Positions 45,450 through 64,000 of a DNA stretch of 64,000 nucleotides are shown piece by piece. The translations under genes were made by a program, and so were the position numbers. Below the pieces are notes generated by a model that ran no database searches, was not told where the DNA came from, and saw nothing but the letters and a program-made list of their open reading frames with translations. Source of the DNA: a virus; IMG/VR virus record IMGVR_UViG_3300045988_147738, positions 38,432 through 102,431 of that record; one strand, given 5' to 3'. How positions within the stretch are numbered: the stretch's first letter is position 1; every line of letters starts with the position of its first letter.

Positions 45450-45495
45450 GGGAAGTGAATCATTTAGAATCACTTCCCATTTTATTATTTTCTAA
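45450..45495. terminator. Bidirectional rho-independent terminator at the end of the + strand late module
   Basis: GGGAAGTGA...TCACTTCCC hairpin between an A8 run and ATTTTATTATTTT. Confidence 0.65.
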
Positions 45496-45828
45496 TCGTT
45501 GCTTAGAATTATCAATATAATGATTTATTTTTTCATTTGAAAAATATGTAATTGGTTTATCTAATTTCCTAGCATAGCAGATTTCTTGATAACCAGTCGG
45601 CCCAATATATTCATTTTCTCCAGTAATAAAATAAATGGCATCAGCCATATTAATTTTATTTTTACTAGAGTTTAACAATCTAGTTTCTGTGTCTGATGAT
45701 AATATAATATTATCTGCATGAGCAAATACTTTAGGAGATAAAACAATATGTCCTTCGAGAGATAGGATTGCTCCTAACTTCTCGAAGGACTCTTTGAATT
45801 TAGTGCTTCCGCACAAACAAATAATCAA
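45460..45828 (-). CDS. Nucleoside 2-deoxyribosyltransferase / DNPH1-like protein, 122 aa
   Basis: LIICLCGSTKF (compare IYLAGP) and ADAIYFITGENEYIGPTGYQEICYARKLDKPITYF (compare aDxvva.ldG...GTxxEIGyAxAlgKPv). TTG start directly after the upstream TAA. TGA stop. Confidence 0.5.
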   Translation of the reverse strand: MIICLCGSTKFKESFEKLGAILSLEGHIVLSPKVFAHADNIILSSDTETRLLNSSKNKINMADAIYFITGENEYIGPTGYQEICYARKLDKPITYFSNEKINHYIDNSKQRLENNKMGSDSK

Positions 45829-46242
45829 TTAATCTTCAACCTTTTTAGGCTGAGCTTTATTTGTGTTGACCTCAGACTCGATTTTAGTAGTAATATATCC
45901 ACTTAAATCACCAAGGGCTTCATCAAGATACTCTTTAGCATCTTCAGTCAGAATACCCATTACGGCGTCATAAGTCTTTTTGAATGCTTCCAATTGAGCA
46001 TTTTTATCAAATGCATTTTGCCCCTTCAGACTTTCAACATATGTTTGATTTGTTGCTAATACACAATCAGTAATTGTTTTATTAAGCATGTCCATATATT
46101 TTTGAAGAGTTTCATCATTGGTTTTAGCCTTCAATTCATTGGTTTTAGACTGAATAAAACGAACCAAGAATAAAGAGACAGCTGTTAGTACTGGAACAAT
46201 AAGAATATTGAAAATTTGTTGTAGCATTTCTAGCCAATCCAT
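45829..46242 (-). CDS. Holin-like protein, 137 aa. N-terminal transmembrane helix and long coiled-coil tail, LL-H-holin-like architecture.
   Basis: AGGAGG RBS. MDWLEMLQQIFNILIVPVLTAVSLFLVRFIQ followed by a charged helical region. No TAG codons. Confidence 0.45.
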   Translation of the reverse strand: MDWLEMLQQIFNILIVPVLTAVSLFLVRFIQSKTNELKAKTNDETLQKYMDMLNKTITDCVLATNQTYVESLKGQNAFDKNAQLEAFKKTYDAVMGILTEDAKEYLDEALGDLSGYITTKIESEVNTNKAQPKKVED

Positions 46243-46375
46243 AAATTATTTCCTCCTATTCTATTTTCTGTATTATAAAATAAATTTTTGGAAAAGTCAA
46301 TAAATGTCAATTCCTATTTAATATGAAAAATATTCTAGATAGTTTTCTCGAAAATAACCAGGCAAAAACCATTAA

Positions 46376-46404
46376 TTGGTCCATCTTAATTTACATTATA
46401 TAAT
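46376..46404 (+). promoter_or_regulatory. Candidate promoter for the 46491-48772 gene block
   Basis: TTGGTC, 17-nt spacer, TATAAT (about 46397-46402), upstream of the operator-like repeats. Confidence 0.35.
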
Positions 46405-46416
46405 GGAGGAGCTTAG

Positions 46417-46465
46417 TAAAATTTTTTACACCATTGTAAAATTTTTTACTCCGCTGTAAAAAATT
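46417..46465. repeat. Operator-like direct repeats. Two copies of GTAAAATTTTTTAC plus the variant GTAAAAAATTT, each near-palindromic.
   Basis: tagTAAAATTTTTTACaccattGTAAAATTTTTTACtccgctGTAAAAAATTTgg lies between the candidate promoter and the ATG at 46491. Confidence 0.4.
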
Positions 46466-46490
46466 TGGAAAGCGAGGTATTTTCTAGAAA

Positions 46491-46931
46491 ATGTATCCAA
46501 ACAGTTATAACTATTATCCTCAATCTCAAAATCCCTACCTGAATCGTTATATGCCTACTAACCAATATACTCAACAACTTCAAGGATTAAAAGGTCGGCC
46601 GGTCTCTAGTCTTGAAGAAGTTCGAGCAACAGGTATTGATTTTGACGGGTCGGTTTTCTATTTTCCAGACCTAGCAAATCGACGTATCTACACAAAACAA
46701 ATCAATTTAGATGGAACAGCTTCATTAAATATGTATGAATTAAAAGCTACTCCTCCTCCAACAGCATAGCCAGAAGCAACACCATCTGACGCTTCTTATG
46801 TAAGCAAAGAAGAATTCGAGAAAACAGTCACAATTCTAGTTAATGAAATTAATAAACTGAAAGGAGCTAACGCAGATGAATCCAAACCAAATGATGAATC
46901 CAATGGCGATGCTACAGAATTTAAATTCTAA
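46491..46931 (+). CDS. Tyr/Pro/Gln-rich N-terminus protein, 146 aa
   Basis: MYPNSYNYYPQSQNPYLNRYMPTNQYTQQ.... One TAG. TAA stop at 46929-46931. Confidence 0.5.
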
Positions 46932-47082
46932 TCCCTTATTCCAATAGGCACAAAGAATGGCTCAAGGAAAATCAGAAGCAGAGATTATTCAAATCGCACG
47001 TAATATCTGCCGAGAAAAGGGAATCAATTTTGATGAAGCTTATTCTATCTTCCAATCTCAATATAATTAGAAAGGAATGTAA
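46876..47082 (+). CDS. Small protein, 68 aa, overlapping the 3' end of the previous gene in another frame
   Basis: A GAAAGGAG RBS lies 9 nt before the ATG at 46876, inside the upstream gene. Frame 1 is open, with two TAGs, to the TAA at 47080-47082. Confidence 0.4.
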
Positions 47083-47087
47083 AAATT

Positions 47088-47765
47088 ATGGCTTTAACTG
47101 AAAACGGATTATCTCCTGCTGATATCATGGCAATGACCCAAGGCGACAATAACAATAATGGTTTTGGCGGCACTTGGACTTGGGTATTCTTCTTATTCTT
47201 CCTACTGGCTTGGGGAGGCGGCGGATTATTTGGCGGCGGTTCTACTCAAGGCGCTTTAACTCGCGCTGAATTAGCTGATGGCCTAGGTCGTCAAGATATG
47301 TTCCGCAATCAAGATATGATCCTTACCGAAGTAAGCGCATTTGAACGTGATGCTACTAACCGTTGGGGTAATATCCAATACGAAGTAATGAAAGGGTTAA
47401 ACGATAATCGTTTCGCCCAGCAAGAATGTTGTTGCACAACTAATCGCAATATTGACGCTGTGAGATATGAGAATGCTAAAAATACTTGCGATATTGTAAA
47501 TACTAGCAACTTAAATACTCGTGATATTTTAACTAATCAAAATGCTGGTGTCCAGCGTATTCTTGATTATTTAACTACCGATAAAATTGAAGGTCTGCGT
47601 ACTGAATTGCAGTCTGCCAACTTAACAATTCAGAACATGAATCAGACTTCTGATTTATTAAATGTCTTACGTCCATATCCTACTCCTGCATATATTACTT
47701 GCAGTCCTTATACTTCAAGTAATATTTATAATGCATTTAGTGGATGCGGAGCTTGCGGTAATTAA
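47088..47765 (+). CDS. Membrane protein, 225 aa
   Basis: AGAAAGGAA RBS. The TM segment WTWVFFLFFLLAW is followed by GGGGLFGGG. No TAG. TAA stop. Confidence 0.6.
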   Translation: MALTENGLSPADIMAMTQGDNNNNGFGGTWTWVFFLFFLLAWGGGGLFGGGSTQGALTRAELADGLGRQDMFRNQDMILTEVSAFERDATNRWGNIQYEVMKGLNDNRFAQQECCCTTNRNIDAVRYENAKNTCDIVNTSNLNTRDILTNQNAGVQRILDYLTTDKIEGLRTELQSANLTIQNMNQTSDLLNVLRPYPTPAYITCSPYTSSNIYNAFSGCGACGN

Positions 47766-47823
47766 TTTATTGAGGGAGGAAATATCCTCCCTCTATTCTA
47801 ACTAAGAAAGGAGTTCATACGAA

Positions 47824-48244: not shown

Positions 48245-48250
48245 AGTTGA

Positions 48251-48772
48251 ATGGATTGCCAAGAATATATGATTTCTATAATTAAACGCCAAACAGAGGG
48301 AGTAGTTTATCACGAAAATATGACTGACTATTACCGTTTTTTATGTTTAGATGGTTTAAAAGAAATCCATTGTCATCAATCTTAGGAAGAATTAGAAACT
48401 CTTCAATGTATTAAAGATTGTTATGCAAAAATATATTTTTCAATTCCACAATTTGAAATGGAAAACACAACATTAATTCCAGCAGAATGGTATAGTAAAA
48501 CATCTATGGATGTTACCAAAGGAGCCATTAAATCATTAAGTAAAGAAAGTCTCTACCATTGGCTCGATTGGGAGAAGGAAACAGTGAGCATCTATAAAGA
48601 GGCTGCTATGCACTTCAAAGAAAATATGGCATTCCACGAGTTAAAAATAGCTAAAAAATTAATTAAAAATGTTTCCGCAGAAATTTGTGAAATTGAAGGA
48701 TTGATTACAGAAGGGTTAGCTTACGATTTTAGCCCTGAATTTTTAAAATATTATTATAAAATAGAAGAATAA
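48251..48772 (+). CDS. Ferritin/rubrerythrin-like four-helix-bundle candidate, 173 aa. Extends ORF-track fragment 48458 upstream through one TAG.
   Basis: Repeated E..H motifs: EGVVYHE, KEIHCH, ENMAFHE. Frame 2 is open from the ATG at 48251 to the TAA at 48770-48772. Confidence 0.45.
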
Positions 48773-48781
48773 ATTATTATA

Positions 48782-48822
48782 AGCCGAGAATTAAGTTTTA
48801 TTTAATTCTCGGCTATTTTTTA
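48782..48822. terminator. Bidirectional rho-independent terminator
   Basis: AGCCGAGAATTAA, loop, TTAATTCTCGGCT, followed by T-rich sequence. Confidence 0.7.
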
Positions 48823-49314
48823 TTCTTTGTAGGTAGATAAACTATTTCTAAATTTCTATTCTACCATTTGGAATAGTTTATCTCCTGTATGATTTCCATT
48901 CATTTTATTATATGTCTCATGGTCGCTCTCAATTTCTTCAAATTCATCGAGAGTGATTTCATGGTCTGGATTTAATAATTTTCGACAATCATTTTTAAAT
49001 TGTTTTCCCTAAATAGATAAAATACCATCTCTTACAACATCTATTTTATCATTTACATTATAAATTTCTTGTTTTAAACTATCGTTTTCTTGTTTAGATA
49101 AATTTCGCTCAGTTTGCAGTAAATTAGCTGTAGTTTTATGTTCATCACTAATTTTACTTTTTAATTCTTTAATAATTTTTTCATGAGCTTCATCTTCTAA
49201 ACGCTATTTTTCTTTTTTATATAAGTTATAAAAATATTTAGCTAAACCCGTAAGTCCTAATGCGATTATACCAAATAAAAACTCAAGCCAATATTTGGCG
49301 ATAAAATCAAGCAT
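48820..49314 (-). CDS. TM plus coiled-coil protein, 164 aa (lysis-associated or spanin-like candidate). Absent from the ORF track because of 3 TAGs.
   Basis: GGAAAGGAG RBS. MLDFIAKYWLEFLFGIIALGLTGLAKYFY followed by a long charged helix. Hand-translated to the TAA at 48820-48822. Confidence 0.5.
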
Positions 49315-49320
49315 TTAAAA

Positions 49321-49383
49321 AACTCCTTTCCGTAAGAATCTCTATCCATTTGTTCTTACAAATAAGGAGTTATTTTTTTTTGT
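49321..49383. terminator. Extended imperfect hairpin followed by T9. Terminator for the minus-strand replication operon, or bidirectional.
   Basis: AACTCCTTTCCGTAAGAA...TTCTTACAAATAAGGAGTT. The 5' arm is the reverse complement of the RBS of the 48820-49314 gene. Confidence 0.5.
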
Positions 49384-49392
49384 ATTTTGGCC

Positions 49393-49902
49393 TTATTCCC
49401 AATTATACTCTTCTTGAGATTTAGTGAAATATGCAGTATATAAACATATAGCATCACATACATCATCATTAGCCACTATACCATATTTATTTTTTACAAA
49501 CTCAATATCTGCTTGTTTAAGTGCTACTCGTTTTACTTTTGGACCAAGTTTCATTCCAAGTAATTTTCGCCATGATGATGAATTCATAAATTCAATAAAA
49601 TCGTAATCAATGCTAGTATCAATACTATGAGCACCTAATGCCACAGACCCTTGAAGCCACATTAAAACACGTTCAGTATGAGACTTATTCCCATATGCTT
49701 CTGGATGCACATCTTCTGCAACTATTTTACCAACACTATTTTCTTTTATCAAATCTACAATTTTATCAGTCATTTGTTTAATACGTTCAAGAGTATTGTC
49801 TCCTGAAATAGGAATTAATCCCCATTTGAGCATTTCCCCTTTTTCAGAAGATAAACACCATCCAGTAGATTTAGATGATAAATCTAAAAATAATATATTC
49901 AT
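49393..49902 (-). CDS. RuvC-like Holliday junction resolvase, 169 aa
   Basis: MNILFLDLSSKSTGW.... The size, layout and context match RuvC-family phage resolvases. Confidence 0.65.
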   Translation of the reverse strand: MNILFLDLSSKSTGWCLSSEKGEMLKWGLIPISGDNTLERIKQMTDKIVDLIKENSVGKIVAEDVHPEAYGNKSHTERVLMWLQGSVALGAHSIDTSIDYDFIEFMNSSSWRKLLGMKLGPKVKRVALKQADIEFVKNKYGIVANDDVCDAICLYTAYFTKSQEEYNWE

Positions 49903-50459
49903 TAAGTTAGACTAGCTTGATTGGCTTCTGGGCTACTTGTAGTAGAACCAAACCCACCAAGCCGTTGACCAAAAGCATTATCATCATCTGTTGTTAGATA
50001 AGACTTAATAATACCTTGGCCAATTTTATCTCCCTTTTTAAGTTGAATATCAAATGGAGTAAGATTAATTACTTGAAAATAAATATGTCCTTCATTATCG
50101 GGATTATTATAATAATCAGCATCAATAATACCCACTCCATTAGCAAGAATAATCCAATGCTTTAGTGGAGTAGAACTACGTACTGATAATTCAAGATATG
50201 TATCCGCATCAAGACAACATTTAATTCCAGTAGGAATAAGAGTAGGTTTTATTTTTAATTCTTTAGTAAAACTAGCCATTTCAGTTAGAGTATAAGTATG
50301 GCCTGTTCTACCCCATCGAACCATTTCACTCATTTGGTTAGAATAAGATGGGATTACAATATCATCGGCCACAGTAAAATCATATCCGGCGGAATTCACT
50401 GTGCTACGAGTAGGAATTACAGCATCAGGGTATTTAGAAACTCTTTCAAACTTAATCAT
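49902..50459 (-). CDS. dut: dUTP diphosphatase, 185 aa
   Basis: Trimeric dUTPase motifs: AGYD, RSS, GVIDADY, GDKIGQ, GGFGSTT. Confidence 0.85.
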   Translation of the reverse strand: MIKFERVSKYPDAVIPTRSTVNSAGYDFTVADDIVIPSYSNQMSEMVRWGRTGHTYTLTEMASFTKELKIKPTLIPTGIKCCLDADTYLELSVRSSTPLKHWIILANGVGIIDADYYNNPDNEGHIYFQVINLTPFDIQLKKGDKIGQGIIKSYLTTDDDNAFGQRLGGFGSTTSSPEANQASLT

Positions 50460-50710
50460 TAGAAATCAATTTGCTCCCCATATTTAATATTAACAACAGA
50501 AATAGGGTCTTTTTCATCATTGAATTTCTTGGTTAATGAAACTTGATACCATTCATCAATGATTTCTCCCTTCTATTTCTTTTCTTTTTTTACAGAACTA
50601 TACTTAGCTAATTCATACATACTATCATGCTTAGCCTTCTCAATTAAAGAAGCAGCACTAGCTTCATCATCAACTCTATATACTTCAGTTGTACTTACTA
50701 GGTATTCCAT
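50459..50710 (-). CDS. Small protein, 83 aa, read through one TAG
   Basis: Its ATG overlaps the upstream TAA, and its TAA overlaps the dut ATG. The frame was hand-checked. Confidence 0.4.
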
Positions 50711-51557: not shown

Positions 51558-52052
51558 TCACATTTTTTCCCATAAGTCAAATGGAGCATAATAAACTTTT
51601 TGATTGCGTGAGCCACGCATAGGTAAGGTAATATCTCGTTGCTCAATCTTGAATGGGCCGTCAATAATACAGTCAATATTATCAACAATATTTTTTAGAT
51701 GTGGCTCTCTACGCATAGCCAATTCATCCATTGTATACCCAGTCCATAAGAAAATTTTTGTTTTGGGAAGAGCTTCTTTAATATGTTCAATAATTAAATC
51801 TACAAGAAATAGATTTTCTGGGGCGAGAGGCTCTCCACCCATAATACAAAAATCACGATGTATACCATTAGCAGTAAGAGCATTCACTATATCATCTAAT
51901 GTATCTGTAGTAAATTCTTTTCCGCCATTAAAATCCCAAGTTTCTGGATTCTAACAACCTTCGCAATGTCTTGCACATCCTTGAATGAAAAATGAGACAC
52001 ACACTCCAGGAGCTCCAGCAATATCATTTTTAATTATTCCTGCGTATCTCAT
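51558..52052 (-). CDS. nrdG: Anaerobic ribonucleotide reductase activating protein, 164 aa. Extends ORF-track fragment 51558-51887 through one in-frame TAG.
   Basis: The extended N-terminus reads MRYAGIIKNDIAGAPGVCVSFFIQGCARHCEGC-TAG-NPETWDF. It carries the radical-SAM Cys cluster missing from the ORF-track fragment. Its ATG overlaps the nrdD TGA (ATGA). Confidence 0.75.
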
Positions 52053-54298
52053 TCCATCACTCCTACGTGTTTGACTCGATGTTCAACTTCATCTTGCTTT
52101 CCTAAATTAAATGCAGTTTTATAATTACCAGTTAAATAGCCGGTCACACGACGAAGTTGCTGGATTTCTTTACTACCACATTCTGGACATTTATCATTGA
52201 ATTCACCAGTATATCCACACTTGAGACAAGTGTCATTAGGAACATTTACAGCAAAATAAGGAATATCTTTATCCATAGCATAATTTACAATTTGTTCAAG
52301 AGCAGTTAAATTATTAGATACTGTAGAATCTAACTCAACATAAGTAATACAACCGGCATTACTATATCCAGTCAATTGACTCTCAATATCAATTTTGTCA
52401 AATGGGCTCATTTCTTTCCATACAGGAACATGAATTGAATTAGTAAAAAATTCTTTATCACTTACATTAGGAATTTCGCCATACTTAGCCTTAAATTTCT
52501 TCATTGCAGTATAGCAGAGATTTTCCGCGGGAGTGTAATAAACACCGAAGTTTAATTTATATTGTTCCTTAAATTCCGCACAACGCTGTTTAAATAAGGA
52601 TTCAATTTTTTTTGCTAATTCCATTCCTTCTGGAGTAGTGTGGTCAACGCCAATAAGAATTTGTAGAGTTTCTGCTAGCCCTAACTGGCCTAGAGCCAGT
52701 GTTCCATGTTTAAGCGCACTTCTAATTCCTTCTTCTGGAATGTAGCCTGCCATCAAATTATTTTCATACATGAATTTAGCTGAAGCTGGGCTTTGAGAGC
52801 AAATCCAATTAAAACGTTCAATTAATTGATCTTTTGCTTCATGAATTTTTTCATCAAGTAAAGTCATAAAACTTCTAATTCTAGCAGCTTTTGGAATTAA
52901 TTGAAAATCACTGTTTTCAGTGGCTTCTTTTGCCAGCATAGCTAATGTAGGCATAATAATGGTTACTGGACAAATATTTCCACGACCATCTTTTAATTGG
53001 CCTAAGCCGTTAATATCATATCCATTAGCGGTTCGGCATCCCATTGTGCTAAAATAGGTGCGTGGGTTATTAATATCATAGCCAGCATTTTCAGACCAAT
53101 CAACATTCGCATAATTAGGATATAATCTTTTAGCAGTAGATTTTAACGCAAGTTTAAATAAATCATAATTCGGGTCACCTGGTTCTCTATTAACACCCTT
53201 CATGCATTGGAAAATTCCACAAGGGAAAATAGAAGTTTTATGTAATTTACCTAATCCTTCAAGAGACACTTCTAATAGGGCTTTTGTAATCATTCTTCCT
53301 TCTGGAAGAGTACAAGTTCCATAGTTAATAGAAGTAAATGGAAGTTGGTTACCACTACGACTTTGAAGAGTATTTAAATTATGATACATACCTTCAACTG
53401 CTTGATGGATTTCTTTTTCTGTCTGTTTTAGAGCATAATTATAAGTATTTTGATGACCAAATTGACTTTGCAATTCTTTATTAGAAATTTCAATAGGCTC
53501 ACAATCACTCATAATTTGTAGAGCCATACCTTCACTATAATCATCAACATCAGTTAAATAGGCTTTAAAATGTTTTCTAAAACTCTTTTTAACATAAGGA
53601 ACCATAGTCCAATCAAGATGAGTAGCACTAACTCCACCAAACTGTTGAAGAGATTGTAATTGAAAAATAACTGCAACTAATTGGAATGCTGTATTTACTG
53701 AACCCGCTGGACGCACATCTGTTTGACGAGTATTAAATCCATTAGCAAGTAAATCATCAAATGGAATTGATAAACAGTTATGGTCGCCCACAGCATAATG
53801 GTCAAGGTCGTGAGTGTAAATCATATTCTCTTCATGATTACGTTTTGTGCGAGGAGATACGATATAATCAAGGGCATATTGTTTCATTAAGAGACTATTG
53901 GCTTCCCCCATACGCCCACCAAATGATGCTTCATCAACATTAGCATTTTGATTTTGAATATTAGCTCCACGAATTTTTTCACCAATCGCAGTAATAAATT
54001 CAGTTGAATGAGTGCGAGCGACTTCTTTTTTATATCTATAGCGAATATAAGCACGAGCAATATCAGGACGCTCTGATGCCATTAACGCTTCTTCAATCCA
54101 ATTTTGGATGTCTTCAACATTAACACTTCCATCGGGGAAATGACTCGCTCTATATTCTACTTCATCAGCGATGCTATTAATACTATCTGATTCAAAAATA
54201 TTTTTATCTACAGCAATAAATGCTTTAGTAATAGCATCAATAATTTTTTGTTTGTTAAATGGCATTACATCGCCATTACGTTTAATTATATAAAACAT
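52049..54298 (-). CDS. nrdD: Anaerobic (class III) ribonucleoside-triphosphate reductase, 749 aa
   Basis: C-terminal Zn ribbon CLKCGYTGEFNDKCPECG and glycyl-radical-type RRVTGYLTG. Length and nrdG coupling match the family. No TAG codons. Confidence 0.85.
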   Translation of the reverse strand: MFYIIKRNGDVMPFNKQKIIDAITKAFIAVDKNIFESDSINSIADEVEYRASHFPDGSVNVEDIQNWIEEALMASERPDIARAYIRYRYKKEVARTHSTEFITAIGEKIRGANIQNQNANVDEASFGGRMGEANSLLMKQYALDYIVSPRTKRNHEENMIYTHDLDHYAVGDHNCLSIPFDDLLANGFNTRQTDVRPAGSVNTAFQLVAVIFQLQSLQQFGGVSATHLDWTMVPYVKKSFRKHFKAYLTDVDDYSEGMALQIMSDCEPIEISNKELQSQFGHQNTYNYALKQTEKEIHQAVEGMYHNLNTLQSRSGNQLPFTSINYGTCTLPEGRMITKALLEVSLEGLGKLHKTSIFPCGIFQCMKGVNREPGDPNYDLFKLALKSTAKRLYPNYANVDWSENAGYDINNPRTYFSTMGCRTANGYDINGLGQLKDGRGNICPVTIIMPTLAMLAKEATENSDFQLIPKAARIRSFMTLLDEKIHEAKDQLIERFNWICSQSPASAKFMYENNLMAGYIPEEGIRSALKHGTLALGQLGLAETLQILIGVDHTTPEGMELAKKIESLFKQRCAEFKEQYKLNFGVYYTPAENLCYTAMKKFKAKYGEIPNVSDKEFFTNSIHVPVWKEMSPFDKIDIESQLTGYSNAGCITYVELDSTVSNNLTALEQIVNYAMDKDIPYFAVNVPNDTCLKCGYTGEFNDKCPECGSKEIQQLRRVTGYLTGNYKTAFNLGKQDEVEHRVKHVGVME

Positions 54299-54370: not shown

Positions 54371-54967
54371 TTAATAAGTTGTGTCCAGATGCTCCGGCCA
54401 CTGAGACAGAAATAATGCTAAATCTTTATATATACATTCTAATTCCGCGGGAGTATTATTTATATATAACCAATTACATAAATCATCAGCGTCTTCAAAA
54501 TCAAGTTTATCTGTTTTATATCGACGAATAATTTCATCAATATCCGGGTTAGCCTCTCGATTTAGCTATCTAATTAATCGAATTTTATCATCTGCGTGAA
54601 TATAAACGATAATTAAATTTACTCGTTTATCATGTAATAAAATCTCTGCGCCTTCTGGATTAAATACTCCTACATTGATAGCGCCTTCTTTGACTGATTC
54701 AATTCCTGTGCCATAGCACCATTCATTAAAAACAGTAGCTTCAAACATTTGATTCTATAAAATCATTTCAGCAAATTTTTCTGCTGAGATAAAATGGTAG
54801 TTAATACCATCCACTTCTTTTTCTCTTGGAGGTCTTGAAGTATAACTTATAATTTCATGTAGAGGTAATTTACCATTATAATAATGTTTTGTATCATCAA
54901 TTAGTTTACGGAGAATGGTATCTTTACCACTCCCCGCTTCACCAATTAATGCTAATATATTATACAT
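54371..54967 (-). CDS. P-loop (d)NMP / guanylate-kinase-like protein, 198 aa. Joins ORF-track fragments 54755-54967 and 54566-54748 plus a further segment through two TAGs.
   Basis: P-loop GEAGSGKDT in the first fragment, Gmk-like ...FNEWCYGT... in the second. The TAGs at 54755-54757 and 54566-54568 fall inside the conserved fold. TAA at 54371-54373. Confidence 0.65.
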
Positions 54968-57900
54968 TAATTAGCTCCTCCATTGTATCTTTCATCTTTT
55001 AATTCAATATCACCATTATCTAAAATTTTATCAATTTTATACAACTGGTGACCGCCAGAACTAGCATACTTTTTTGCTATAAAATTATCGCCTTGACGAA
55101 TGCCTTGAACAGCAATCATATTACCACGATTAAACCAACTTTTTTCCATTACTTTTTTAGTGCCATCAATTTGTTTTTCTGAAATCTGTTTATCAAATAA
55201 TGAGAAATATTCTTTTCTAAATTTAACTTCGACAACTCCAGAAGTAGTAAGTAATGTAACTGTAGATTTAGTTTTATTTTTAGCAATACAAGTTCCGCAA
55301 ATCTTATGTAATTTATACATAGTAATTGTTTTATTGCCTTTAGAAAATGTTTTATCAATAATGGGCTCTTCTGGCAGATGGAAGAAATCAACAAATCCAT
55401 ATTTACTATTATTTACATGGGCTAATTCATGCTCATGATAATAGAAACATAAGACTTCCATTTCCCACGCTGAAATAGATTTAGATGCATATTTATCCCA
55501 ATCTTCTTTAAATATTTTATTATTTAATTTATTTAAAATAATATCTTTATTTTCTGCAATCCAAGTTCGGAATATATCCATATATTTTTGATATACTTTA
55601 TCCCAAGCTTTAGAATCTAATAAATAACAACTACCAATTAAATCATCGCAACCAATTTCAATTAAAAAATTAATCGCTCGTTCATCAACTTTATAGATAT
55701 TACCATCTTTACAAACAGCTTTTAAATATCTATTAAATTCATAAACTCGTCTTGCCATTACATATTCATCTTTATCTTCTGGTAATAAATTATAACGAAT
55801 TAGAGTTGCTAAATTTTGTAATGTTAAACGAGATTTTTTATCACACGTTTCCCAAATATACCAAATCATTAAATCTTTACGGTCCATCATTTCATCAAAT
55901 GCACCGCTTTTAATCAATGAAATCATTGCTTGCTTACTTGGTTTAATACGATAATAAAAATCTTTCACTGATATATACGGACGATTTGCAATAATATTAT
56001 TAATCAAATCATCGCCAACGTTCAACAATCCTTTTAAGCCAAATAAAATTTGGTTATTTTCAACATCAGGCGCAAATCCAAATCTAGCTTTATTAATATC
56101 AGCCAAACTTACTTTAATACCAGCTGACTGTATATCTCCAATAGCTTTTGCGATTTTACCATAATCAGTGCTAGCTACTTTTTTATTTTTTGATTTATTC
56201 TCCATTATATCTTCTGGAGACGCACCACAATATTCTTCACCGGAATAATCATAATCTTCATCAGTTATTTCTTCTGGTTTATTTTCTAACGCTCCACTGT
56301 TTACAATTAAACAAGCGCAATTCCAATAAATAGGATTGAAATTAATTGCCAAATAAATCATTTGAATTGCAACAAATGAATAAGGAAGAGAGTGATTTAA
56401 GCTAAACGCATATCCTAACTGAGGAGCGATCGCATTTTCCCAAAAATATTCAGCATTATGTTCATTAGTAAATTTACTAAATACTTGCTCTTTTAATTGA
56501 GGAATTTTTGCCATTTGCTTTTTAGCAACAACTTTACGCGCGCTATTTGCTTCGCCTAATGTAAATCCAGCGACATCCATAAGGATTTCCATCATTTGCT
56601 CTTGAAGTGGACAACATCCATAATATCTATCACAATGCTTGTGCATTTTTTCAATCATTTCTTCTGGCAAATGATTATCTTTCATTTCTTTATCAAAAAC
56701 TTGAATACCAGCTTTTTGGATTCGATAATATCTATCTTGCTGACTTTCTTTGCCCTTTTCACTCATTAGACGCATCATAGCGTTTGCAGCGGTCATTTCC
56801 ATAGGATCTTTTGGTTTCAATTTTTTAGCAATAGCTAAACCTACACCAGTAGAGAATTGGAATACGTCAAGAATATCTCCTGCCGCCAAGTGTTCCCAAA
56901 TGCGTTTATCAGAAGTATCTATTACTTCTGGATGAAGATATTTATTATAAAAATCACGTAGACCAATATCAGGGATTTGATTATCTTCTTTTAATAAATT
57001 ATAGCATTGAATAATTTTATCGCAAGCTTCTGTTACCAGGAAGTCATATTTAGTATCTCCGGCGGCTTCGGCTTTATGTAAGTCCCAACAAGTAATTAAA
57101 TCACCACTAGGAGTTTTCATAAATGATGCAGTTTCAAATGGGTCTTCACCATATAAAATAACACCAGAAGCATGAGAAGAACGTTTATTAATAATTCCTT
57201 CAATATATACAATAATATCCAATAAACCAGGATATTGATTTACCTTTTGGATAAATGTAGTAACTGGCTTTCTATCTTTATCAGGATTACCATTTACCAC
57301 ATCTTTCATCGGCCATAAAATTCCACGTTCCTGCGGGATTAATGAAGACATAAATTGAGCTTCATCTACATCAATACCATTGGGATAATCATCACTTCTA
57401 TAGCCACGACAAGCAGTTAAGATTGCTTGCTTTGTTCCTTCAGTTCCAAATGTTGCAACTTGAATTAAACCTAATGTTCCACGTTCTTTACGAATAGCAC
57501 TAAAAATTGCAGGGCGTTTACTTGGCGCAAGATCGATATCAATATCAGGCAATTCCGCGCGCTCTAAATTTAAGAAACGCCAATATGGTAATCCCCAACG
57601 AATTGGATCTAGCTGAGTAATTCCTAATAAATAATTAGATAAGAAACCAGTTGCTGAACCTCGACCAGGACCAACAATACTCCCGCACTCCCAAAATAAA
57701 TCAATATAATGTTTAAATGTATTAAAATAAGCAAACAAACAGTCTTCAAGTTTTTCGCCAATATTTTTAATTACATTAGCTTCAGTTTCAAGACGAGATA
57801 TATATATTTCATTCTCATATAATTGTTTTTCTTGCAAGGCTTTAATACATTCATTTACCCAATATCGTTCTTGAATATCATCACTATTAATTAATGAACA

Positions 57901-58938
57901 AATAACAGGATATTTCTCAAGCCAATCTGCTGGAATAAATCCTTTTTTATAATCAATTACTTCTACTCTTGGAATTTGTTGTTTACGTTCCAGAGAATAA
58001 AATTTTATTTTCTTTTGAATTTCTAATGTATTGTCAAAAATCCAATTCATAATCTCTTGAGGAGTTTTATCTTTATCCCAAGTATCCATATATGGTAGCA
58101 TTAATTCTTCTACTTCATCACTATTCATTACATAAGCAAACTCATAGAATGAATCAACTTCACGCTCGCCATCTTTAGAATTTAAATAAGCTTTATGAAT
58201 TGGTCTATCTTTCTTTGTTAAATAATGAGCATCGGTTCCAATTACCATTTTTAAATCATATGCTTTTGCTACTTGATAAATCTTTTGATTTACTACAAGT
58301 TGGTCTTTCATGGTAGATGGAGCGCACTCCAAATAAAAATCATCTTTACCAAAAACATTTATACAAAATTCAATGAATTTAACAACATTATTATAATAAA
58401 TGCTTTTAGTTTGCATATCGCCTACTACTTCAGCCTCATACATTGGATATAAATTAGAACCTAATTCACCACCAATGCAAGCTGTTGTTGCGATAACATG
58501 TCCTTTGTATTGTGCCATTACATTTTTTAATTCAGACTTTAATGTTGGCACACGTTCCATTTTTCTATCAGTATAAGAATTAATCCAAGCAATTGAACTT
58601 AATTCTTTTAATGCTTTATAACCAATTTCATCTTTTGCCAATAGAATAAAATGATAATACTTTTGACCACAATCTCTTGTATCAGTTAAATAAATTTCAT
58701 TACCTAGCGCAATAGTAAAATCAGGATGCTCTTTTAAAAAATCTTTTGCAAATTGATTAACTTCCATATGAGCAGATAAACAGTCATGGTCAGTAATTGC
58801 TATACCACTTAATCCTAATTTTTCTGCTGTTTTAATCAACTCTTCTGGTCTATTAATAGAATCTAATAAACGCAGATTTGAATAGTGAGTATGGTTGTGT
58901 ACGCCAAAATATGGTCGCATAATCCACCTCTTTCTCAT
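54967..58938 (-). CDS. DNA polymerase III alpha subunit (DnaE-type, N-terminal PHP domain), 1323 aa
   Basis: N-terminus ...HNHTHYSNLRLLDS...GLSGIAITDHD. Length and architecture match Pol III alpha. No TAG codons. AAGAGGTGG RBS. Confidence 0.8.
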   Translation of the reverse strand: MRKRWIMRPYFGVHNHTHYSNLRLLDSINRPEELIKTAEKLGLSGIAITDHDCLSAHMEVNQFAKDFLKEHPDFTIALGNEIYLTDTRDCGQKYYHFILLAKDEIGYKALKELSSIAWINSYTDRKMERVPTLKSELKNVMAQYKGHVIATTACIGGELGSNLYPMYEAEVVGDMQTKSIYYNNVVKFIEFCINVFGKDDFYLECAPSTMKDQLVVNQKIYQVAKAYDLKMVIGTDAHYLTKKDRPIHKAYLNSKDGEREVDSFYEFAYVMNSDEVEELMLPYMDTWDKDKTPQEIMNWIFDNTLEIQKKIKFYSLERKQQIPRVEVIDYKKGFIPADWLEKYPVICSLINSDDIQERYWVNECIKALQEKQLYENEIYISRLETEANVIKNIGEKLEDCLFAYFNTFKHYIDLFWECGSIVGPGRGSATGFLSNYLLGITQLDPIRWGLPYWRFLNLERAELPDIDIDLAPSKRPAIFSAIRKERGTLGLIQVATFGTEGTKQAILTACRGYRSDDYPNGIDVDEAQFMSSLIPQERGILWPMKDVVNGNPDKDRKPVTTFIQKVNQYPGLLDIIVYIEGIINKRSSHASGVILYGEDPFETASFMKTPSGDLITCWDLHKAEAAGDTKYDFLVTEACDKIIQCYNLLKEDNQIPDIGLRDFYNKYLHPEVIDTSDKRIWEHLAAGDILDVFQFSTGVGLAIAKKLKPKDPMEMTAANAMMRLMSEKGKESQQDRYYRIQKAGIQVFDKEMKDNHLPEEMIEKMHKHCDRYYGCCPLQEQMMEILMDVAGFTLGEANSARKVVAKKQMAKIPQLKEQVFSKFTNEHNAEYFWENAIAPQLGYAFSLNHSLPYSFVAIQMIYLAINFNPIYWNCACLIVNSGALENKPEEITDEDYDYSGEEYCGASPEDIMENKSKNKKVASTDYGKIAKAIGDIQSAGIKVSLADINKARFGFAPDVENNQILFGLKGLLNVGDDLINNIIANRPYISVKDFYYRIKPSKQAMISLIKSGAFDEMMDRKDLMIWYIWETCDKKSRLTLQNLATLIRYNLLPEDKDEYVMARRVYEFNRYLKAVCKDGNIYKVDERAINFLIEIGCDDLIGSCYLLDSKAWDKVYQKYMDIFRTWIAENKDIILNKLNNKIFKEDWDKYASKSISAWEMEVLCFYYHEHELAHVNNSKYGFVDFFHLPEEPIIDKTFSKGNKTITMYKLHKICGTCIAKNKTKSTVTLLTTSGVVEVKFRKEYFSLFDKQISEKQIDGTKKVMEKSWFNRGNMIAVQGIRQGDNFIAKKYASSGGHQLYKIDKILDNGDIELKDERYNGGAN

Positions 58939-58957: not shown

Positions 58958-58986
58958 ATTATATCATATAATTTATTATAAATCAA
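58958..58986 (-). promoter_or_regulatory. Candidate sigma70-type promoter for the polymerase operon
   Basis: On the minus strand: TTGATT, 17 nt, TATAAT, just upstream of the RBS. Confidence 0.35.
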
Positions 58987-58991: not shown

Positions 58992-60188
58992 TTATTTTCT
59001 AATAAGAACTAAACGCTCTTTAGCTCTTGTGGCTAAAGTATATAGATATTTTTTATGAGTTTCTCTATCATATGGAGGAGCTTCTTCAAATCCTAATACT
59101 TTATTATATTCACTACCTTGGGCCTTCCAACAAGTAATAGCATAGGCATATGAAAAATCAAATGGAGGGTCAGGACAATTTTTATTCTTTTTAATTTGAT
59201 AAATTTGTTTTCCTTCAAATGTTCTTTTGCCAGTTAATAATTGATTATAATCAATAGGGACTCCACAAAATGTATCATTATCATCAAGTCTTAATTGAGC
59301 ATACATAAATGGTACAGGATTTTTATAAATCCAATATGGGAATCGTATGTCTTCGACATAAAAATCTTCTAATGTTCCAATAGTCCCATTAGTTAATGCC
59401 CATGTATGATTAGAAGATATAAAATCCCATTGATTATGTAATCCAATTAATTTATCTCCAATACAAGGCCGGGCTGGGTCATATCCTTTTTGAGTTCGGA
59501 TTATACGATTAATATCATTTCGTTTTTCATTTGTTGAGCAAATAATTTGGTCTGCCCAATTATACATCTAAGGAAGCATTTCATCCCATTTAAATCGAAT
59601 TAAAACTTGCTCTTCAGTGCCTTTATATGAAGAAATTGGTTTGTTATCACGAATCCACATTGAAAATCTAATAATTTCACTATCTTGAGCTTGACGCATA
59701 ATTTCATCAAGGAAAACATGCGGATTGTCGAGCACATGATTATTATCTTCATCGACTATTGGCGGTAATTGACCGGGGTCTCCAGTAGCTAAAATATAGA
59801 TGCCATGAGATAAAAGCAATTCCCACATAGCTTTAGGGAGCATTGAAACTTCGTCTACTACAATTACTTTATAGTGTACTATTTCTTCTCTCGGTCTTGG
59901 AAAAAATTTATATGTTCCATTAGGGGTAATCCGTGCTTTATATAATAACTAATGAGCAGTAGTTGCATTTGGGCAACCTTTAGTCTAGAGAACTGTAGCT
60001 GCTTTACCCGTAAATGCCACATAACAAACTTCTTCTTCTGGATTTACTCCCAAGGCAGAGATAATAAATTTAATTAGAGTTGATTTACCACTTCCAGCAT
60101 AACCTGCTATTACTGTATATCGTTCTTTATTTTTATATCGTTCTACTGCTATCTTTAATCCTTGTTCTTGTTTATTTGTTAAAATCAT
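58992..60188 (-). CDS. SF1 Dda/RecD-like DNA helicase, 398 aa. Joins three ORF-track fragments through 3 TAGs.
   Basis: Walker A IAGYAGSGKST, TGKAATVL, T-A-H-(TAG)-L-L, VIVVDEVSM, and GDPGQLPPI in the middle fragment. TAGs at 59985-87, 59949-51 and 59568-70 were hand-verified as in frame. Confidence 0.7.
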
Positions 60189-60216
60189 TTATATCACCAT
60201 TTTGGTATAAAAATTT

Positions 60217-60420: not shown

Positions 60421-60431
60421 ATTATTTCTAT

Positions 60432-60476
60432 AAATGAAAATAAGGGTTATATGGAGAAATACCTCTCCATATAACC
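60432..60476 (-). terminator. Hairpin plus T-run terminator on the minus strand after the lipoprotein gene
   Basis: GGGTTATATGGAG, loop, CTCTCCATATAACC. Followed on the minus strand by TTATTTTCATTT. Confidence 0.5.
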
Positions 60477-60484
60477 ATATATAA

Positions 60485-61315
60485 TTAAGATGCAAAATAT
60501 TCAAAAGCGATTAAAGCATTTGATTGTCTCACATCATAAGAACCTGATCCACAGCGCTCATAACATTTAGCAAATGCTAATGCAATTTCTTCAATATCAG
60601 TCATTTCAATAAAATCATCATAATCAAATCCTGATTTATATTCACCACCAAATGAATTAAATTCATTTTCAATAGTTTCAACTAAATATTGACATTGTTC
60701 AGATAAATTCATACCTTTAGTATTACTATATTTTAAACTCCATTGACATATGCCATAATATCCTGGATGAGTATTGGTAGTATGTTCAATATCTAAAGTA
60801 TGCCCACCAACCTCAGCCATTATATTGCCAAGGATACCCGCGCATATTTCATCGCTATACCCTTGATCGCTTAAATATAGCCAAATACTAGAAGCAGTTG
60901 GATATTTCTCAATTCGAATTTCCCAACATTTTTGTTCTAACCGATTTTCATAAATTGTAATCAATTCATTTAATTGTTCAATTTCAGCGGTTGTTGTTTT
61001 AACTACTGGATGTTTATCAGTGTATCCTAAATTATCAGCCAATACTAGCATTTGTTCAGCGGATTCTTTTAATGTTTTACACTCTTGGATTAGTGTTCTT
61101 AATTCTTGTGTATCTTCTGTTTTAGATATATTTCTAATTTGTTTATACTCAATAGTAGTAGTAAGATCTACCACAGAAGACATTTCAGAAGGGATGTAAG
61201 CTTCCGAAAGTGCATTTCGAGTAATAGCTGACGCTTCAACGATTTTAACGCTGCATCCAATAATTAATACACAGCTTAATGCAATCAGCCATTTATTCAA
61301 AATAGTATTTTTCAT
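60485..61315 (-). CDS. Secreted lipoprotein, 276 aa, with a lytic-transglycosylase/lysozyme-like C-terminal domain
   Basis: Signal peptide plus lipobox (LIIGCSV). C-terminus ...MAEVGGHTLDIEH...GYYGICQWS resembles SLT-type E...GxxQ motifs. AGGAGG RBS. Confidence 0.5.
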   Translation of the reverse strand: MKNTILNKWLIALSCVLIIGCSVKIVEASAITRNALSEAYIPSEMSSVVDLTTTIEYKQIRNISKTEDTQELRTLIQECKTLKESAEQMLVLADNLGYTDKHPVVKTTTAEIEQLNELITIYENRLEQKCWEIRIEKYPTASSIWLYLSDQGYSDEICAGILGNIMAEVGGHTLDIEHTTNTHPGYYGICQWSLKYSNTKGMNLSEQCQYLVETIENEFNSFGGEYKSGFDYDDFIEMTDIEEIALAFAKCYERCGSGSYDVRQSNALIAFEYFAS

Positions 61316-61368
61316 AATTGTAATTCCTCCTAATAGGTTTTTGGTCTATTAGTCGTAAGTGTCAATTA

Positions 61369-63114
61369 TTAAAAATAATAATTTGCCCTATCTACAATTT
61401 CGTAATCTTTAATCATAACTTGAGGACTAATTTTATTATTCCAAATATTTCGTTCGCATTCACCAACGATATTAATTGTCACATAACCTAATTCAGAATA
61501 TAGTTTATCATATTCCTCTTCAGACGACCTAAACTTCATAAAATTGATGCCGTTAGGCAACATTATCTTTAGAGTAGGATTTTTATCTGGCGATAGAATA
61601 CGTATATTGTCCTTGTGGACTTTAATACCTTCTACAGCAATTTCAGCTTCTTCTACTCCTTGACCCCATAAGCTTTTCATTCCTGCGATGTCAATAACTT
61701 CATCAGGAGTTAGCTCATCTGATTTGTAGATAAAATCTACATTATAGATTGGGGTGAAATCAAAACCATCTAGAGCAGAATTTGTAGATGCAATAAATGC
61801 GCTAATATCTTCATCTTTAATGCCAATACCAAATGCATTAGCATGACCTTCAGCATACATAACGTATTTATTATTTTCTAAAAATCCTCTAAAATCTTTC
61901 AATCGAGATTTGTCGTATCCTCTACCAGACCCTTCCCAAGTTATTGTACCATCTTCATTTTCAATTTTATTTAAGATTAAAACAGGTCTTTGATATTCAC
62001 TCATTAATTGATTTGCTATTAATCCAGTTAGGTTGCGGTCAGTAATCAAATCATCTAATTGAACGATTAAGATTTTATTACTCAATAAATTTTGATTTAC
62101 TATTATCTATTCAATTCTTTCTAAGCTATTGTCTCGAATTTTGGTTTGTCTACTTTTAATATTGGTACAATTTCGACAAGCTTGTTCTACTCTCGTCTCT
62201 GCTTGACCTTTACATCCACGTTTCGTTGATGGGACAAGTTCGTATCCCCGAAAATCAAGCATTGATTCAAATAGCATGAGCTTTTCTTCTTGCGTTCCGA
62301 CGCGAGTTGTCGCGTTAATTAATGGAGCAATATAAAAAGCTACTCCAATAGGTGTAATCTCATTTGTAAAATGAAATTGGTCTTTATCAATCGCACCTCT
62401 GAAGTAAGGATTGCGGATTTGTTGAAGTCCTTTATCTATTAATCTTCTTGTTTCAAAATCTCGCACATCCATCATGTCGGCCACCAATCCAAGAGCCACT
62501 AAATCTAAAAACTTCTATGCATGGTCAGTTTTTAATAATATATCAATATAGCAACAAAATTTCCAGACCATTGCTACACCAGATAATGATTTAGTGGGAT
62601 AATCACATAACTAATTATTAATTATACAAGCATACTCAGAAATGTGATCGGCTTCATGGTGGTCTATTACCAACACGTCAACTCCACTCAAATTTAAATA
62701 TTCATGTACTTCATAATCATTTGAACTTGAATCTGGAGCAATTACTAATTTAACATCTTCCGGAATTGTATCTGGAATGATGCCGTGCTGTTTTCCCATA
62801 TGGACACGATAAGAAATGTTATTATTCACAAAACTGGGAAATAGACAATATAAGTAATTCATTAATAATGCAGCGGAAGTATATCCATCACAATCACTAT
62901 CTACCTATATCAGAACTTTGTCATTTTGTGAAATATGTTTAATAAGCATTTTAGCGCCTTCATCCAAGTGCGGTATTAACCGAGGGTCTAAAATGTCATT
63001 ATCAGTAGTGTTTAAATAATGATTAATCTAATCGTAGGGTATTCCACGATTTACTAGCACTTGTTCTACCGGTGTATATATCGGGAACTCGGGTGCTCTT
63101 AGGCGGTATTCCAT
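61369..63114 (-). CDS. DHH/DHHA1 RecJ-like phosphoesterase or nuclease, 581 aa. Joins ORF-track fragments 62611-62862, 62107-62499 and 61369-62085 plus an unlisted N-terminus through 5 TAGs.
   Basis: Motif I VDSDCDGYTS, DHH motif VLVIDHHE, DHHA1 YAEGHANAFGIG. GGAGGG RBS, ATG at about 63114. All joins were hand-checked as in frame. Confidence 0.7.
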
Positions 63115-63186
63115 AGAATAGTCACCCTCCTTTCATTAAATCACTACCTATATATTTTAATTTTTTTATTAAATTTATTATTTATA

Positions 63187-63498
63187 TCAGTCCTTTTCTG
63201 GATAATAATATTCAAACCCATGATAAGGAAAATCAGTGGTACAAGGTTTAATAATAGTATCAACAATATCATCAGCAATTTCACGATCAATATAAGAAAT
63301 ATTACATTTATATCCTCGACTATTAGTATTACCTCGTATAGCTCTCCAATTATCTCCATTTTCATAAGTAATTGTATATTCATTTTTAGTTTTAACTATT
63401 TGAATAGGGCTAATATGGAGATATTCATATTTTAGTGCTATCTAATCTAATTTATTTACTGCTGAAATCCAACGATTACCCCAAACGATACCTTTCAT
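63187..63498 (-). CDS. Hypothetical protein, 103 aa, one TAG
   Basis: GGAGAA RBS. Coherent hand translation. The ORF-track entries in this region (63144-63383 and 63220-63435) are low-complexity artefacts in other frames. Confidence 0.45.
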
Positions 63499-63652
63499 AG
63501 TGTGATTCTCCTTTTATTACTTTTCCACAGTTGGGACATTTATCATATTCTTCTTTAAAACTTTTATAACATAATGGACATTGATATCTTATATCTGGGA
63601 ATGGATCTAAATCTGCGGCTGCATTATATTTATTCCAATGTAATTCATTCAT
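63476..63652 (-). CDS. Small zinc-ribbon protein, 58 aa
   Basis: CPLC...CPNC. Its ATG overlaps the primase TAA. Its 3' end overlaps the next gene's start. Confidence 0.4.
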   Translation of the reverse strand: MNELHWNKYNAAADLDPFPDIRYQCPLCYKSFKEEYDKCPNCGKVIKGESHYERYRLG

Positions 63653-64000
63653 TATATTATAATCCTTTCTTTAAATAATTTCAAGAAAATATCTTTACCA
63701 TCATCGATTGGTGAATCCTTATAGCCAAGCAATCCTATTTTATCAAACATAAATGATATTGTAGCATAATTTTTAAATTTACTTCTTGCTTTTAATAAAT
63801 TTAATTTAAGATGTTTAAATTCATCATCACCAAGTTCTTTAAACTGTCTATCGAATGCAATAATAATTTCTTCAACTCCACAGTCTAATAATAATTGAAC
63901 TTGATGGCTAGATAAATTACTCCCGCAACAGGCCACAGATATATCATTATTAAGACCAAAATAAGTTTTATATTTTAAAACAGATTTTTCTCCCTCAAAT
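63652..64000 (-). CDS. DnaG-type primase, C-terminal Toprim region (partial, continues beyond the window)
   Basis: ...VEEIIIAFDRQFKELGDDEF... is a Toprim-like acidic motif. The frame stays open to the window edge. Confidence 0.5.
   Translation of the reverse strand, partial: FEGEKSVLKYKTYFGLNNDISVACCGSNLSSHQVQLLLDCGVEEIIIAFDRQFKELGDDEFKHLKLNLLKARSKFKNYATISFMFDKIGLLGYKDSPIDDGKDIFLKLFKERIII

Follow-up and report, generated by a model that had tools for sequence, protein, structure and literature searches.

Graded use of TAG as a glutamine codon in an uncultured code-15 phage, with conserved avoidance in core replication genes

The 64,000-nucleotide stretch analysed here (the window; positions 38,432 to 102,431 of IMG/VR virus record IMGVR_UViG_3300045988_147738) comes from an uncultured phage with a genome of ~197 kb that uses genetic code 15, in which the stop codon TAG is read as glutamine. 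In-frame TAG is abundant in its tail genes, sparse in its replication genes, and almost absent, across the clade, from the alpha subunit of its DNA polymerase III (PolIII alpha). The pattern varies continuously from gene to gene, and we tend to attribute it to a graded dependence of the genes on a suppressor tRNA carried by the phage itself.

TAG is read as glutamine

The window is AT-rich (21-36% GC) and falls into two parts: the sign of the GC skew changes at ~46 kb, and nearly all genes lie on the + strand to the left of this flip, while those to the right of 48.8 kb are on the - strand. It is collinear, at 98-99% identity, with contig IMGVR_UViG_3300045988_160359 (197,570 bp; hereafter the near-identical contig). 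The comparison set comprised about 300 related IMG/VR loci, the individual members of which are labelled by L-numbers (L001, L027, L215 and so on); the related contigs encode PolIII alpha at 41-99% identity and represent genomes of 160-200 kb, and the region is TAG-recoded in most of the loci. In INPHARED, megablast of 45460-64000 found no relatives at the DNA level, and the best protein matches are just 39% identical.

Open reading frames (ORFs) that reach 150 aa or more occupy 44.3 kb of the + strand when TAG is read through, but 19.3 kb with the standard code. Read-through restores the coding density, and TAG recoding extends over the entire window. Gene calling in this phage clade needs code 15, and the counts given for the genes of the window refer to stop-to-stop ORFs with TAA and TGA as the sole stops. 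The gene set used for the window contains 216 in-frame TAGs.

The residue that TAG specifies is apparent from dereplicated orthologue alignments, where 21.9% of the residues that face TAG (426 columns) are Q, the background being 3.4%; E and K are next in frequency. The TAG at residue 168 of the RecJ-like exonuclease falls in a column comprising 16 Q and 6 TAG and nothing else, and that at residue 134 of the guanylate-kinase-like protein in one comprising 16 Q and 4 TAG and nothing else. Moreover, the sole TAG differences between near-identical strains (≥99%) are CAG/TAG swaps: codon 218 of the anaerobic ribonucleotide reductase NrdD is CAG in L027 (and in the window) and TAG in L011, and codon 1250 of PolIII alpha is CAG in L027 and TAG in the near-identical strain L017. 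TAG is glutamine in this phage. At conserved Gln positions, TAGs would arise through CAG to TAG transitions, whereas at variable positions they could also take over Glu or Lys codons; they would then build up wherever a gene tolerates reliance on the suppressor. Because TAGs fill invariant-Q columns and swap with CAG, we conclude that the TAG-bearing replication genes are functional and need TAG decoding.

TAG density differs between modules and between neighbouring genes

The tail/virion block (1-45442, + strand apart from one minus-strand gene at 36937-38268) contains giant ORFs of 941-2733 aa and tail-fibre-like genes, and carries 196 TAGs in 14,634 codons (13.4 per 1000; 36% of its Gln codons); the region 45460-64000 carries 20 in 5,636 codons (3.5 per 1000; 10% of its Gln codons). 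The initial annotation, made from the window alone, had described the late structural genes as very dense in TAG. This holds at the level of the module, and density is clearly not uniform after code-15 counting, although the tail block is itself uneven, ranging from 1.5 to 32 TAG per 1000 codons by gene (χ2 p = 6e-5). Two of its genes are conspicuously low, with a single TAG each: that at 22166-23848 (+; 552 aa, 3 CAG), which has no family match, and that at 32455-34461 (656 aa). The giant tail ORFs drew almost nothing from Pfam and PHROGs (most are without a family match, and none has a firm one in Pfam); the label 'structural' is based on tail-fibre PHROG matches at 40853-43693, a virion-protein match just left of the window and a tape-measure-like composition.

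The replication genes are co-directional and tightly packed on the - strand. The DnaE-type PolIII alpha (54967-58938; Pfam domains PHP, DNA_pol3_alpha, finger and HHH_6) has 1323 codons with no TAG, 7 CAG and 38 CAA, and NrdD (52049-54298) has 749 codons with no TAG and 5 CAG. Around them lie four genes that do contain TAG. The RecJ-like DHH exonuclease (61369-63132; 581 codons, ATG at 63114), with a DHH domain at residues 66-209 and RecJ_OB at residues 460-570, has five (63028-63030, 62905-62907, 62611-62613, 62515-62517 and 62107-62109), and the superfamily 1 (SF1; AAA_30 / UvrD_C_2) helicase (58992-60188; 398 codons) has three (59985-59987, 59949-59951 and 59568-59570). The guanylate-kinase-like gene (54371-54970; 198 codons), the start of which overlaps the PolIII stop, has two (54755-54757 and 54566-54568), and the NrdG activase (51558-52082; 164 codons, ATG at 52052) has one, at 51951-51953, immediately after the CxxxCxxC cluster motif. 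All six identities were confirmed by Pfam, and an ORF recount reproduced what the initial annotation had reported, namely, zero TAGs in PolIII alpha and NrdD and 5, 3, 2 and 1 in the others. It had also argued that the TAG-bearing genes are real, and indeed Pfam domains flank the TAGs, some of which occupy invariant-Q columns, and orthologues are found in many lineages.

Taken together, PolIII alpha and NrdD have 0 TAGs in 78 Gln codons, as against 16 in 90 for the other minus-strand replication genes (Fisher p = 2.5e-5). When only G-ending Gln codons are considered, the figures are 0 TAG and 12 CAG versus 16 TAG and 3 CAG in the neighbours (p = 3e-6). Two further genes of the cluster are free of TAG in the window, those encoding a dUTPase (49902-50465, -) and a Phage_lysozyme2-domain protein with a lipoprotein-like N-terminus (60485-61348, -; 0 TAG after the ATG), such that, between 48.8 and 64 kb, TAG-free genes (PolIII alpha, NrdD, dUTPase and lysozyme2-like) alternate with TAG-bearing ones (RecJ, helicase, kinase and NrdG). 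A primase-like gene with a weak Toprim match is cut by the window end, which leaves its C-terminal part (63652-63999, -); the full gene in the near-identical contig (L027:4178-5284) encodes 368 aa and has 0 TAG.

The per-gene pattern across the clade is a continuum

A composite region built on the near-identical contig served to define gene families, and their orthologues were collected from 187 loci and dereplicated, retaining TAG-recoded loci only. As a simple index of the extent to which a gene can be read with the host code, we use TAG/(TAG+CAG), which gives a gene-by-gene picture for the whole clade. The index is 0 for GyrB (0 TAG in 70 Gln codons) and for an SPFH/flotillin protein, 0.02 for GyrA (1 in 209) and 0.03 for PolIII alpha (2 in 335; 8 lineages). 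It then rises through AAA_24 and DNA ligase (both 0.14), the lysozyme2-like protein (0.18; 3 in 90, 8 lineages), NrdD (0.23), the primase-like protein (0.26; 9 in 231, 16 lineages), the DnaB-like helicase (0.31) and dUTPase (0.33) to an intermediate value for the SF1 helicase (0.40; 14 lineages). The highest values belong to RecJ (0.66; 92 in 361, 16 lineages), the kinase (0.70; 14 in 51), NrdG (0.80), a membrane/coiled-coil protein (0.83), an endonuclease-like gene (0.91; 40 in 94, 10 lineages) and a small membrane protein (1.0).

The avoidance of TAG in PolIII alpha is a conserved, selected feature: its Gln codons comprise 2 TAG, 57 CAG and 276 CAA in lineages at 34-100% identity (binomial p = 1e-17 versus the pooled rate). 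Constraint on the protein fails to explain this: compared with the same group, RecJ is 74% identical and PolIII alpha 76%, an equal degree of conservation, and yet RecJ is 40-fold richer in TAG. Neither are PolIII alpha and NrdD recent imports, judging by their ordinary codon usage (G+C content at third codon positions, GC3, of 0.18-0.19). The zero count in NrdD, on the other hand, is peculiar to this strain and is not conserved: 1-5 TAGs occur in relatives at 95-99% identity, and up to 9 in farther ones (9 in L016 and 6 in L031). A zero from a single genome is, as NrdD illustrates, weak evidence.

In L008, L033 and L035, which are sister lineages, the replication module is entirely without in-frame TAG. 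The per-gene pattern is, therefore, a continuum that moves with the spread of recoding in each lineage, and not a pair of classes. The initial annotation had separated truly early genes from TAG-gated middle genes within one operon; this split dissolves once families are compared, given that the index runs continuously from 0 to 1 and that the zero of NrdD is strain-specific. What endures of it is PolIII alpha, which is kept nearly free of TAG clade-wide, as would suit a gene that has to be translatable without the suppressor.

Two further possibilities were considered and set aside. The position of the TAG in NrdG appeared to be conserved, as 8 of 10 lineages have one TAG, but the sites differ, and such a frequency is about what ~5 Gln codons per gene would lead one to expect. 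Recoding of TGA in L008 and L035 was suggested by an increase in ORF coverage on TGA read-through, yet their replication orthologues contain neither in-frame TGA nor TAG.

A suppressor tRNA with a consensus promoter lies upstream of the replisome

ARAGORN detected no tRNA in the window (allowing introns or lowering thresholds yielded nothing or junk), and Rfam at gathering thresholds also gave nothing there; the same was true of ARAGORN over 36-148 kb of the near-identical contig (~112 kb). Beyond this, at L215:905-978, is a tRNA with the anticodon CUA (tRNA(CUA)), with a score of 55 bits under the Rfam tRNA model. It shares the strand of PolIII alpha, the start of which is ~48 kb downstream of it, and lies ~43 kb past the right edge of the window; the genes between the tRNA array and the replisome are mostly TAG-free. 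The tRNA has a U1/U72 mismatch, G73 and an encoded CCA, and was found by an anticodon-arm search in 5/5 genomes of the closest group. The array (L226:3853-13337) comprises 14 tRNAs in the order Ile, Arg, Ile, Pro, Arg, Val, Sup, Tyr, Thr, Ser, Leu, Gly, Lys, Cys.

A perfect TTGACA-17-TATAAT promoter lies ~85 nt upstream of tRNA(CUA). It is kept in the four genomes with sequence that reaches it, while its flanks diverge between genomes; the sequence of L243 ends inside the promoter, but the TATAAT box remains. Within the 13.7-kb array there are four such perfect promoters (0.015 expected), each 70-135 nt before a tRNA. From this arrangement, the suppressor is probably transcribed by the host RNA polymerase from the start of infection. 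Both the suppressor tRNA and its promoter class (sigma-70-type) have thus been located, albeit in the near-identical contig, and they bear on the two options raised in the initial annotation: an early-expressed suppressor is favoured by the promoter, and a host that natively reads TAG becomes unnecessary.

An origin of the suppressor from a phage tRNA-Gln was considered and rejected, as it bears no special likeness to the tRNA-Gln(UUG) genes of other phages that share its anticodon arm. A search of L215:1-7000 with Rfam (E ≤ 0.01) for a theta or hepatitis delta virus-like ribozyme beside the suppressor returned only tRNAs, and ~125 kb of sequence, the extent examined, revealed neither a release factor (RF2 included) nor an aminoacyl-tRNA synthetase. 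In synthetic biology, tRNA(CUA) and the strong consensus promoter in front of it might serve as a natural amber suppressor.

Interpretation and alternative explanations

With moderate confidence, we interpret these observations as those of a code-15 phage in a host presumably using the standard code, the genes of which depend on the suppressor to graded extents, with TAG purged from the core replisome and from an abundant virion protein. The phage tRNA with anticodon CUA would read the in-frame TAGs, and the yield of a gene with n TAGs would vary approximately as s^n, where s is the read-through probability per TAG. With s near 0, the replisome would already be producible; as the tRNA builds up, the accessory genes with 1-5 TAGs (RecJ, SF1 helicase, kinase and NrdG) would climb, and the tail genes, with 14-45 TAGs, would be made only at s close to 1. 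Purifying selection would exclude TAG from PolIII alpha, GyrA and GyrB, and to a lesser degree from the primase, AAA_24 and the DnaB-like helicase; it would also exclude TAG from the most abundant virion protein. The existence of ORFs with 30-45 TAGs argues that s is close to 1 late in infection, whereas the strong purging of TAG from low-copy replisome enzymes argues that s is low when those are made. A rough estimate of the mutational equilibrium, based on synonymous A/G and C/T ratios, would put TAG at 30-70% of Gln codons if it were unconstrained. As the tail genes lie at or below this estimate, no positive selection for TAG is needed to account for them; it is the depletion elsewhere that needs explaining.

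Several observations weigh against an interpretation in terms of dependence on the suppressor over time, one of them concerning the virion structural protein (phrog_2729, E = 1e-52; 359 aa). Its gene (L188:3527-4603 in the near-identical contig) lies ~6.4 kb left of the window start, two genes upstream of a tape-measure-like ORF, and it contains no TAG and 4-6 CAG in each of the four close genomes, as against 2-8 TAGs in every neighbour. Over 56 loci, its 538 Gln codons comprise 5 TAG, 312 CAG and 221 CAA, as against 1549 TAG in 6043 Gln codons (26%) for the neighbours. Hence, a protein that, from its function, would be both late and abundant avoids TAG as strongly as PolIII alpha, and the avoidance of TAG must have at least one cause besides timing. 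TAG is excluded from genes by two or more forces, the candidates being timing and the translation efficiency of highly expressed genes. The suggestion in the initial annotation that TAG-free genes are truly early ones fails as a rule, and TAG counts by themselves are unusable as a timing map, because both replisome genes and an abundant late protein are TAG-free. Further adverse points are that gene function is the sole basis on which genes are placed early, middle or late; that tRNA(CUA) is known from a contig 98-99% identical to the window, and not from the window; and that a consensus host-type promoter suggests immediate TAG decoding, so that the period over which TAG-free genes have an advantage may be short. 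Moreover, TAG is present in NrdD, the DnaB-like helicase and even PolIII alpha of the heavily recoded L015, L016, L029 and L031, and there is one TAG in PolIII alpha of L017, a strain 99% identical; the constraint is strong, not absolute.

One alternative dispenses with timing: TAG would be a slightly costly Gln codon, as suppression is never complete, and the gradient a by-product of the expression level and dosage sensitivity of each gene. AT-biased mutation would add TAGs and selection would remove them according to the harm done by a truncated or reduced product, much as in codon bias. The TAG-free, CAG-preferring virion protein would be expected on such a basis, as would the continuity of TAG/(TAG+CAG) across families and the position of the tail genes (36% overall, up to 61%) at or below the mutational equilibrium; additionally, the modules of L008, L033 and L035, which lack any TAG, indicate that RecJ-type TAGs are dispensable for module function. 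Set against this, ORFs with 30-45 TAGs imply that late read-through is near 1, which would limit the cost per TAG to ~1% or less, too weak to purge the low-copy PolIII alpha, GyrA and GyrB unless read-through were far below this at the time of their synthesis. Nor would a 40-fold gap in TAG fraction be expected between RecJ and PolIII alpha, which are similarly conserved and both presumably of low abundance. The position of TAG within genes speaks in both directions. Across replication-region orthologues (L001-L218), TAGs lean towards the 5' end, with a mean relative position of 0.413 compared with 0.473 in a within-gene permutation, a lean seen in 20 of 28 families and difficult to accommodate without timing; yet it is gone when the analysis is limited to conserved-Q columns, as an account without timing would have it. 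We had considered this bias as evidence of gating, and rejected it as ambiguous. On this evidence, we regard an absence of any timing function as possible but doubtful. The opposite extreme, to which we give a similarly tentative status, is that the number of TAGs is itself a graded translational timer, with transcription of the suppressor beginning in the first minute at its consensus host-type promoter. Those genes that lack TAG (replisome and topoisomerase) would be made at once; those with 1-5 (RecJ, helicase, kinase, NrdG and the endonuclease-like gene) would be delayed in proportion to their TAG number; and the tail genes, with 14-45, would be switched on late in a nearly digital manner. 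Selection would have favoured the modest 5' lean in the middle class, an early stop being cheap, and a separate, efficiency-based selection would have to clear TAG from the most abundant virion protein.

Two other explanations are far less probable. PolIII alpha and NrdD might have been acquired from a standard-code donor (the host or another phage) too recently to have gained TAG. Some TAG-free neighbours do look foreign or biased (GC3 of 0.41 for SPFH/flotillin and 0.28 for AAA_24 and a 312-aa gene), and it is in standard-code SPbeta-like and Enterococcus phages that PolIII alpha has its nearest cultured homologues (39% identity). PolIII alpha is, however, syntenic and almost TAG-free in lineages down to 45-58% identity; close strains differ at 116-246 of its codons, mostly synonymously, indicating ample time for TAG to appear; and its GC3 (0.18) and shares of G-ending codons fit the genome. 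NrdD, for its part, readily gains TAG in close relatives. A recent acquisition of PolIII alpha is largely refuted, and we consider this explanation very improbable. Scarcely any weight can be given to the last, that the TAG-bearing replication genes are decaying pseudogenes, or that the host natively reads TAG, such that TAG has no regulatory meaning. The window itself is devoid of tRNAs, and ARAGORN was negative over about 112 kb of related contig before the array was reached; but TAG-bearing orthologues occur in 10-16 lineages with domains intact on both sides and TAGs at invariant-Q positions, which refutes decay, and the phage has its own tRNA(CUA). In a host that reads TAG natively, the strong avoidance of TAG in core replisome genes would serve no purpose.

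Comparison with known recoded phages

Borges et al. (10.1101/2021.08.26.457843) described recoding focused on structural and lysis genes, variable recoding of replication genes and suppressor tRNAs in several clades of gut phages (Lak, crAss-like, Jade, Sapphire, Agate, Garnet, Amethyst and Topaz), and proposed a model in which early genes in the standard code are followed by a switch of code. The phage described here resembles these in being AT-rich, with TAG at Gln, a suppressor tRNA(CUA), heavily recoded structural genes and variably recoded replication genes, and in that close relatives differ in the extent of recoding. The heavy use of TAG in structural genes and its depletion in replication genes (13.4 versus 3.5 per 1000) are as that model would have it; the case fits the published code switch and is a further lineage of the same phenomenon, the regulatory idea having already been published. 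Its ~197 kb is compatible with the Jade and Sapphire clades (about 200-210 kb), although the likeness is one of size and TAG recoding only. In contrast to the code blocks of Borges et al., TAG-free and TAG-bearing genes are here interleaved in one co-directional replication cluster and, unlike in their description, an abundant late virion protein is also TAG-free. To the published picture, the present analysis adds a gene-level, clade-wide quantification, the strain-specific zero of NrdD, the TAG-free virion protein and the promoter class of the suppressor.

In two crAss-like phages, reading of TAG as Q has been proven by proteomics (Peters et al. 2022, PMC9523058), and a concentration threshold for the suppressor tRNA has been discussed by Kienbeck et al. 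(PMC10879173). As in the crAss-like phages (Yutin et al. 2021, PMC7886860; Mgcod, 10.1101/2022.06.29.495998), late genes read TAG as Gln, early genes are compatible with the standard code and there are suppressor tRNAs; those phages are, however, unrelated, with Bacteroidota hosts and PolA/PolB replication where this one has a DnaE-type module. There, and in the analysis by Mgcod, the code changes between genome blocks, whereas here it changes gene by gene: block-wise dual coding of the Mgcod type is contradicted both by the interleaved genes at 48.8-64 kb and by the TAG-free virion gene among neighbours with 2-8 TAGs. A more distant parallel is offered by T4-like phages, in which phage tRNAs alter the codons that are read efficiently during infection (cited in Borges et al., 10.1101/2021.08.26.457843); those are inefficiently read sense codons, whereas here the codon is a stop that aborts translation without the tRNA.

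Among cultured phages, the PolIII alpha proteins nearest to this one, YorL of SPbeta-like Bacillus phages and those of Enterococcus phages, are 39% identical to it along 99% of its length. These phages use the standard code without a suppressor tRNA, and are distant relatives with no DNA-level match in INPHARED. They also have large siphovirus-type tail modules with giant proteins.

Additional features of the window and its surroundings

Promoter-like sites in the replication region are no commoner than in shuffled sequence. One of them (58958-58986, -; TTGATT-17-TATAAT, with a TG before it) matches 10/12 consensus positions, possibly by chance, and is situated in the 53 bp that separate the helicase from PolIII alpha. 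There is a terminator-like hairpin at 60445-60476; this and the site before PolIII alpha somewhat qualify the single operon supposed in the initial annotation. A hairpin with a 15-bp stem followed by a T-run (48782-48814) separates the converging genes 48251-48772 (+) and 48820-49314 (-), and is likely to be a bidirectional terminator at the module boundary. The gene at 49393-49977 encodes 169 aa that appear RuvC-like by eye; it has no Pfam match and is retained as hypothetical. The Phage_lysozyme2-domain protein, which has a lipoprotein-like signal sequence, is encoded amid the replication genes. The large terminase gene lies outside the window.

Within the tail-fibre block, a Cys-rich protein of 270 aa (38342-39160, +), the C-terminal third of which is nearly all C, G, S and T, adjoins a radical S-adenosylmethionine enzyme (phrog_1802, E = 5e-51; 39450-40823, +). 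Both genes have 4-5 TAGs, and from their sequences they could encode a substrate and its maturase.

Upstream of the window's replication genes, an endonuclease-like gene (L027:3304-4005; 231 aa, 5 TAGs) lies between the DnaB-like and primase-like genes and is missing from the close genome L017; it recalls the preferentially recoded homing endonuclease of Borges et al. Several TAG-free upstream genes (L170:942-2345, L050:8908-9846, L027:70-1077 and L193:6872-8281) have atypical codon usage. The SPFH/flotillin gene, with its GC3 of 0.41, uses AAG at 86%, and the TAG-free AAA_24 and 312-aa genes share a GC3 of 0.28; CAG/CAA counts are 8/0 in the 312-aa gene, 10/1 in AAA_24 and 13/0 in an RNA ligase. 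These G-ending genes would be either foreign or a highly expressed early class. Finally, a pair of genes at L170:6240-8452, on the same strand and directly upstream of TAG-free aminotransferase-like and gyrase genes, encodes a cell-wall-hydrolase-like candidate lysin (612 aa, 3 TAGs) and a candidate membrane protein (123 aa, 2 TAGs) and, with both functions judged by eye, may be a lysis cassette.

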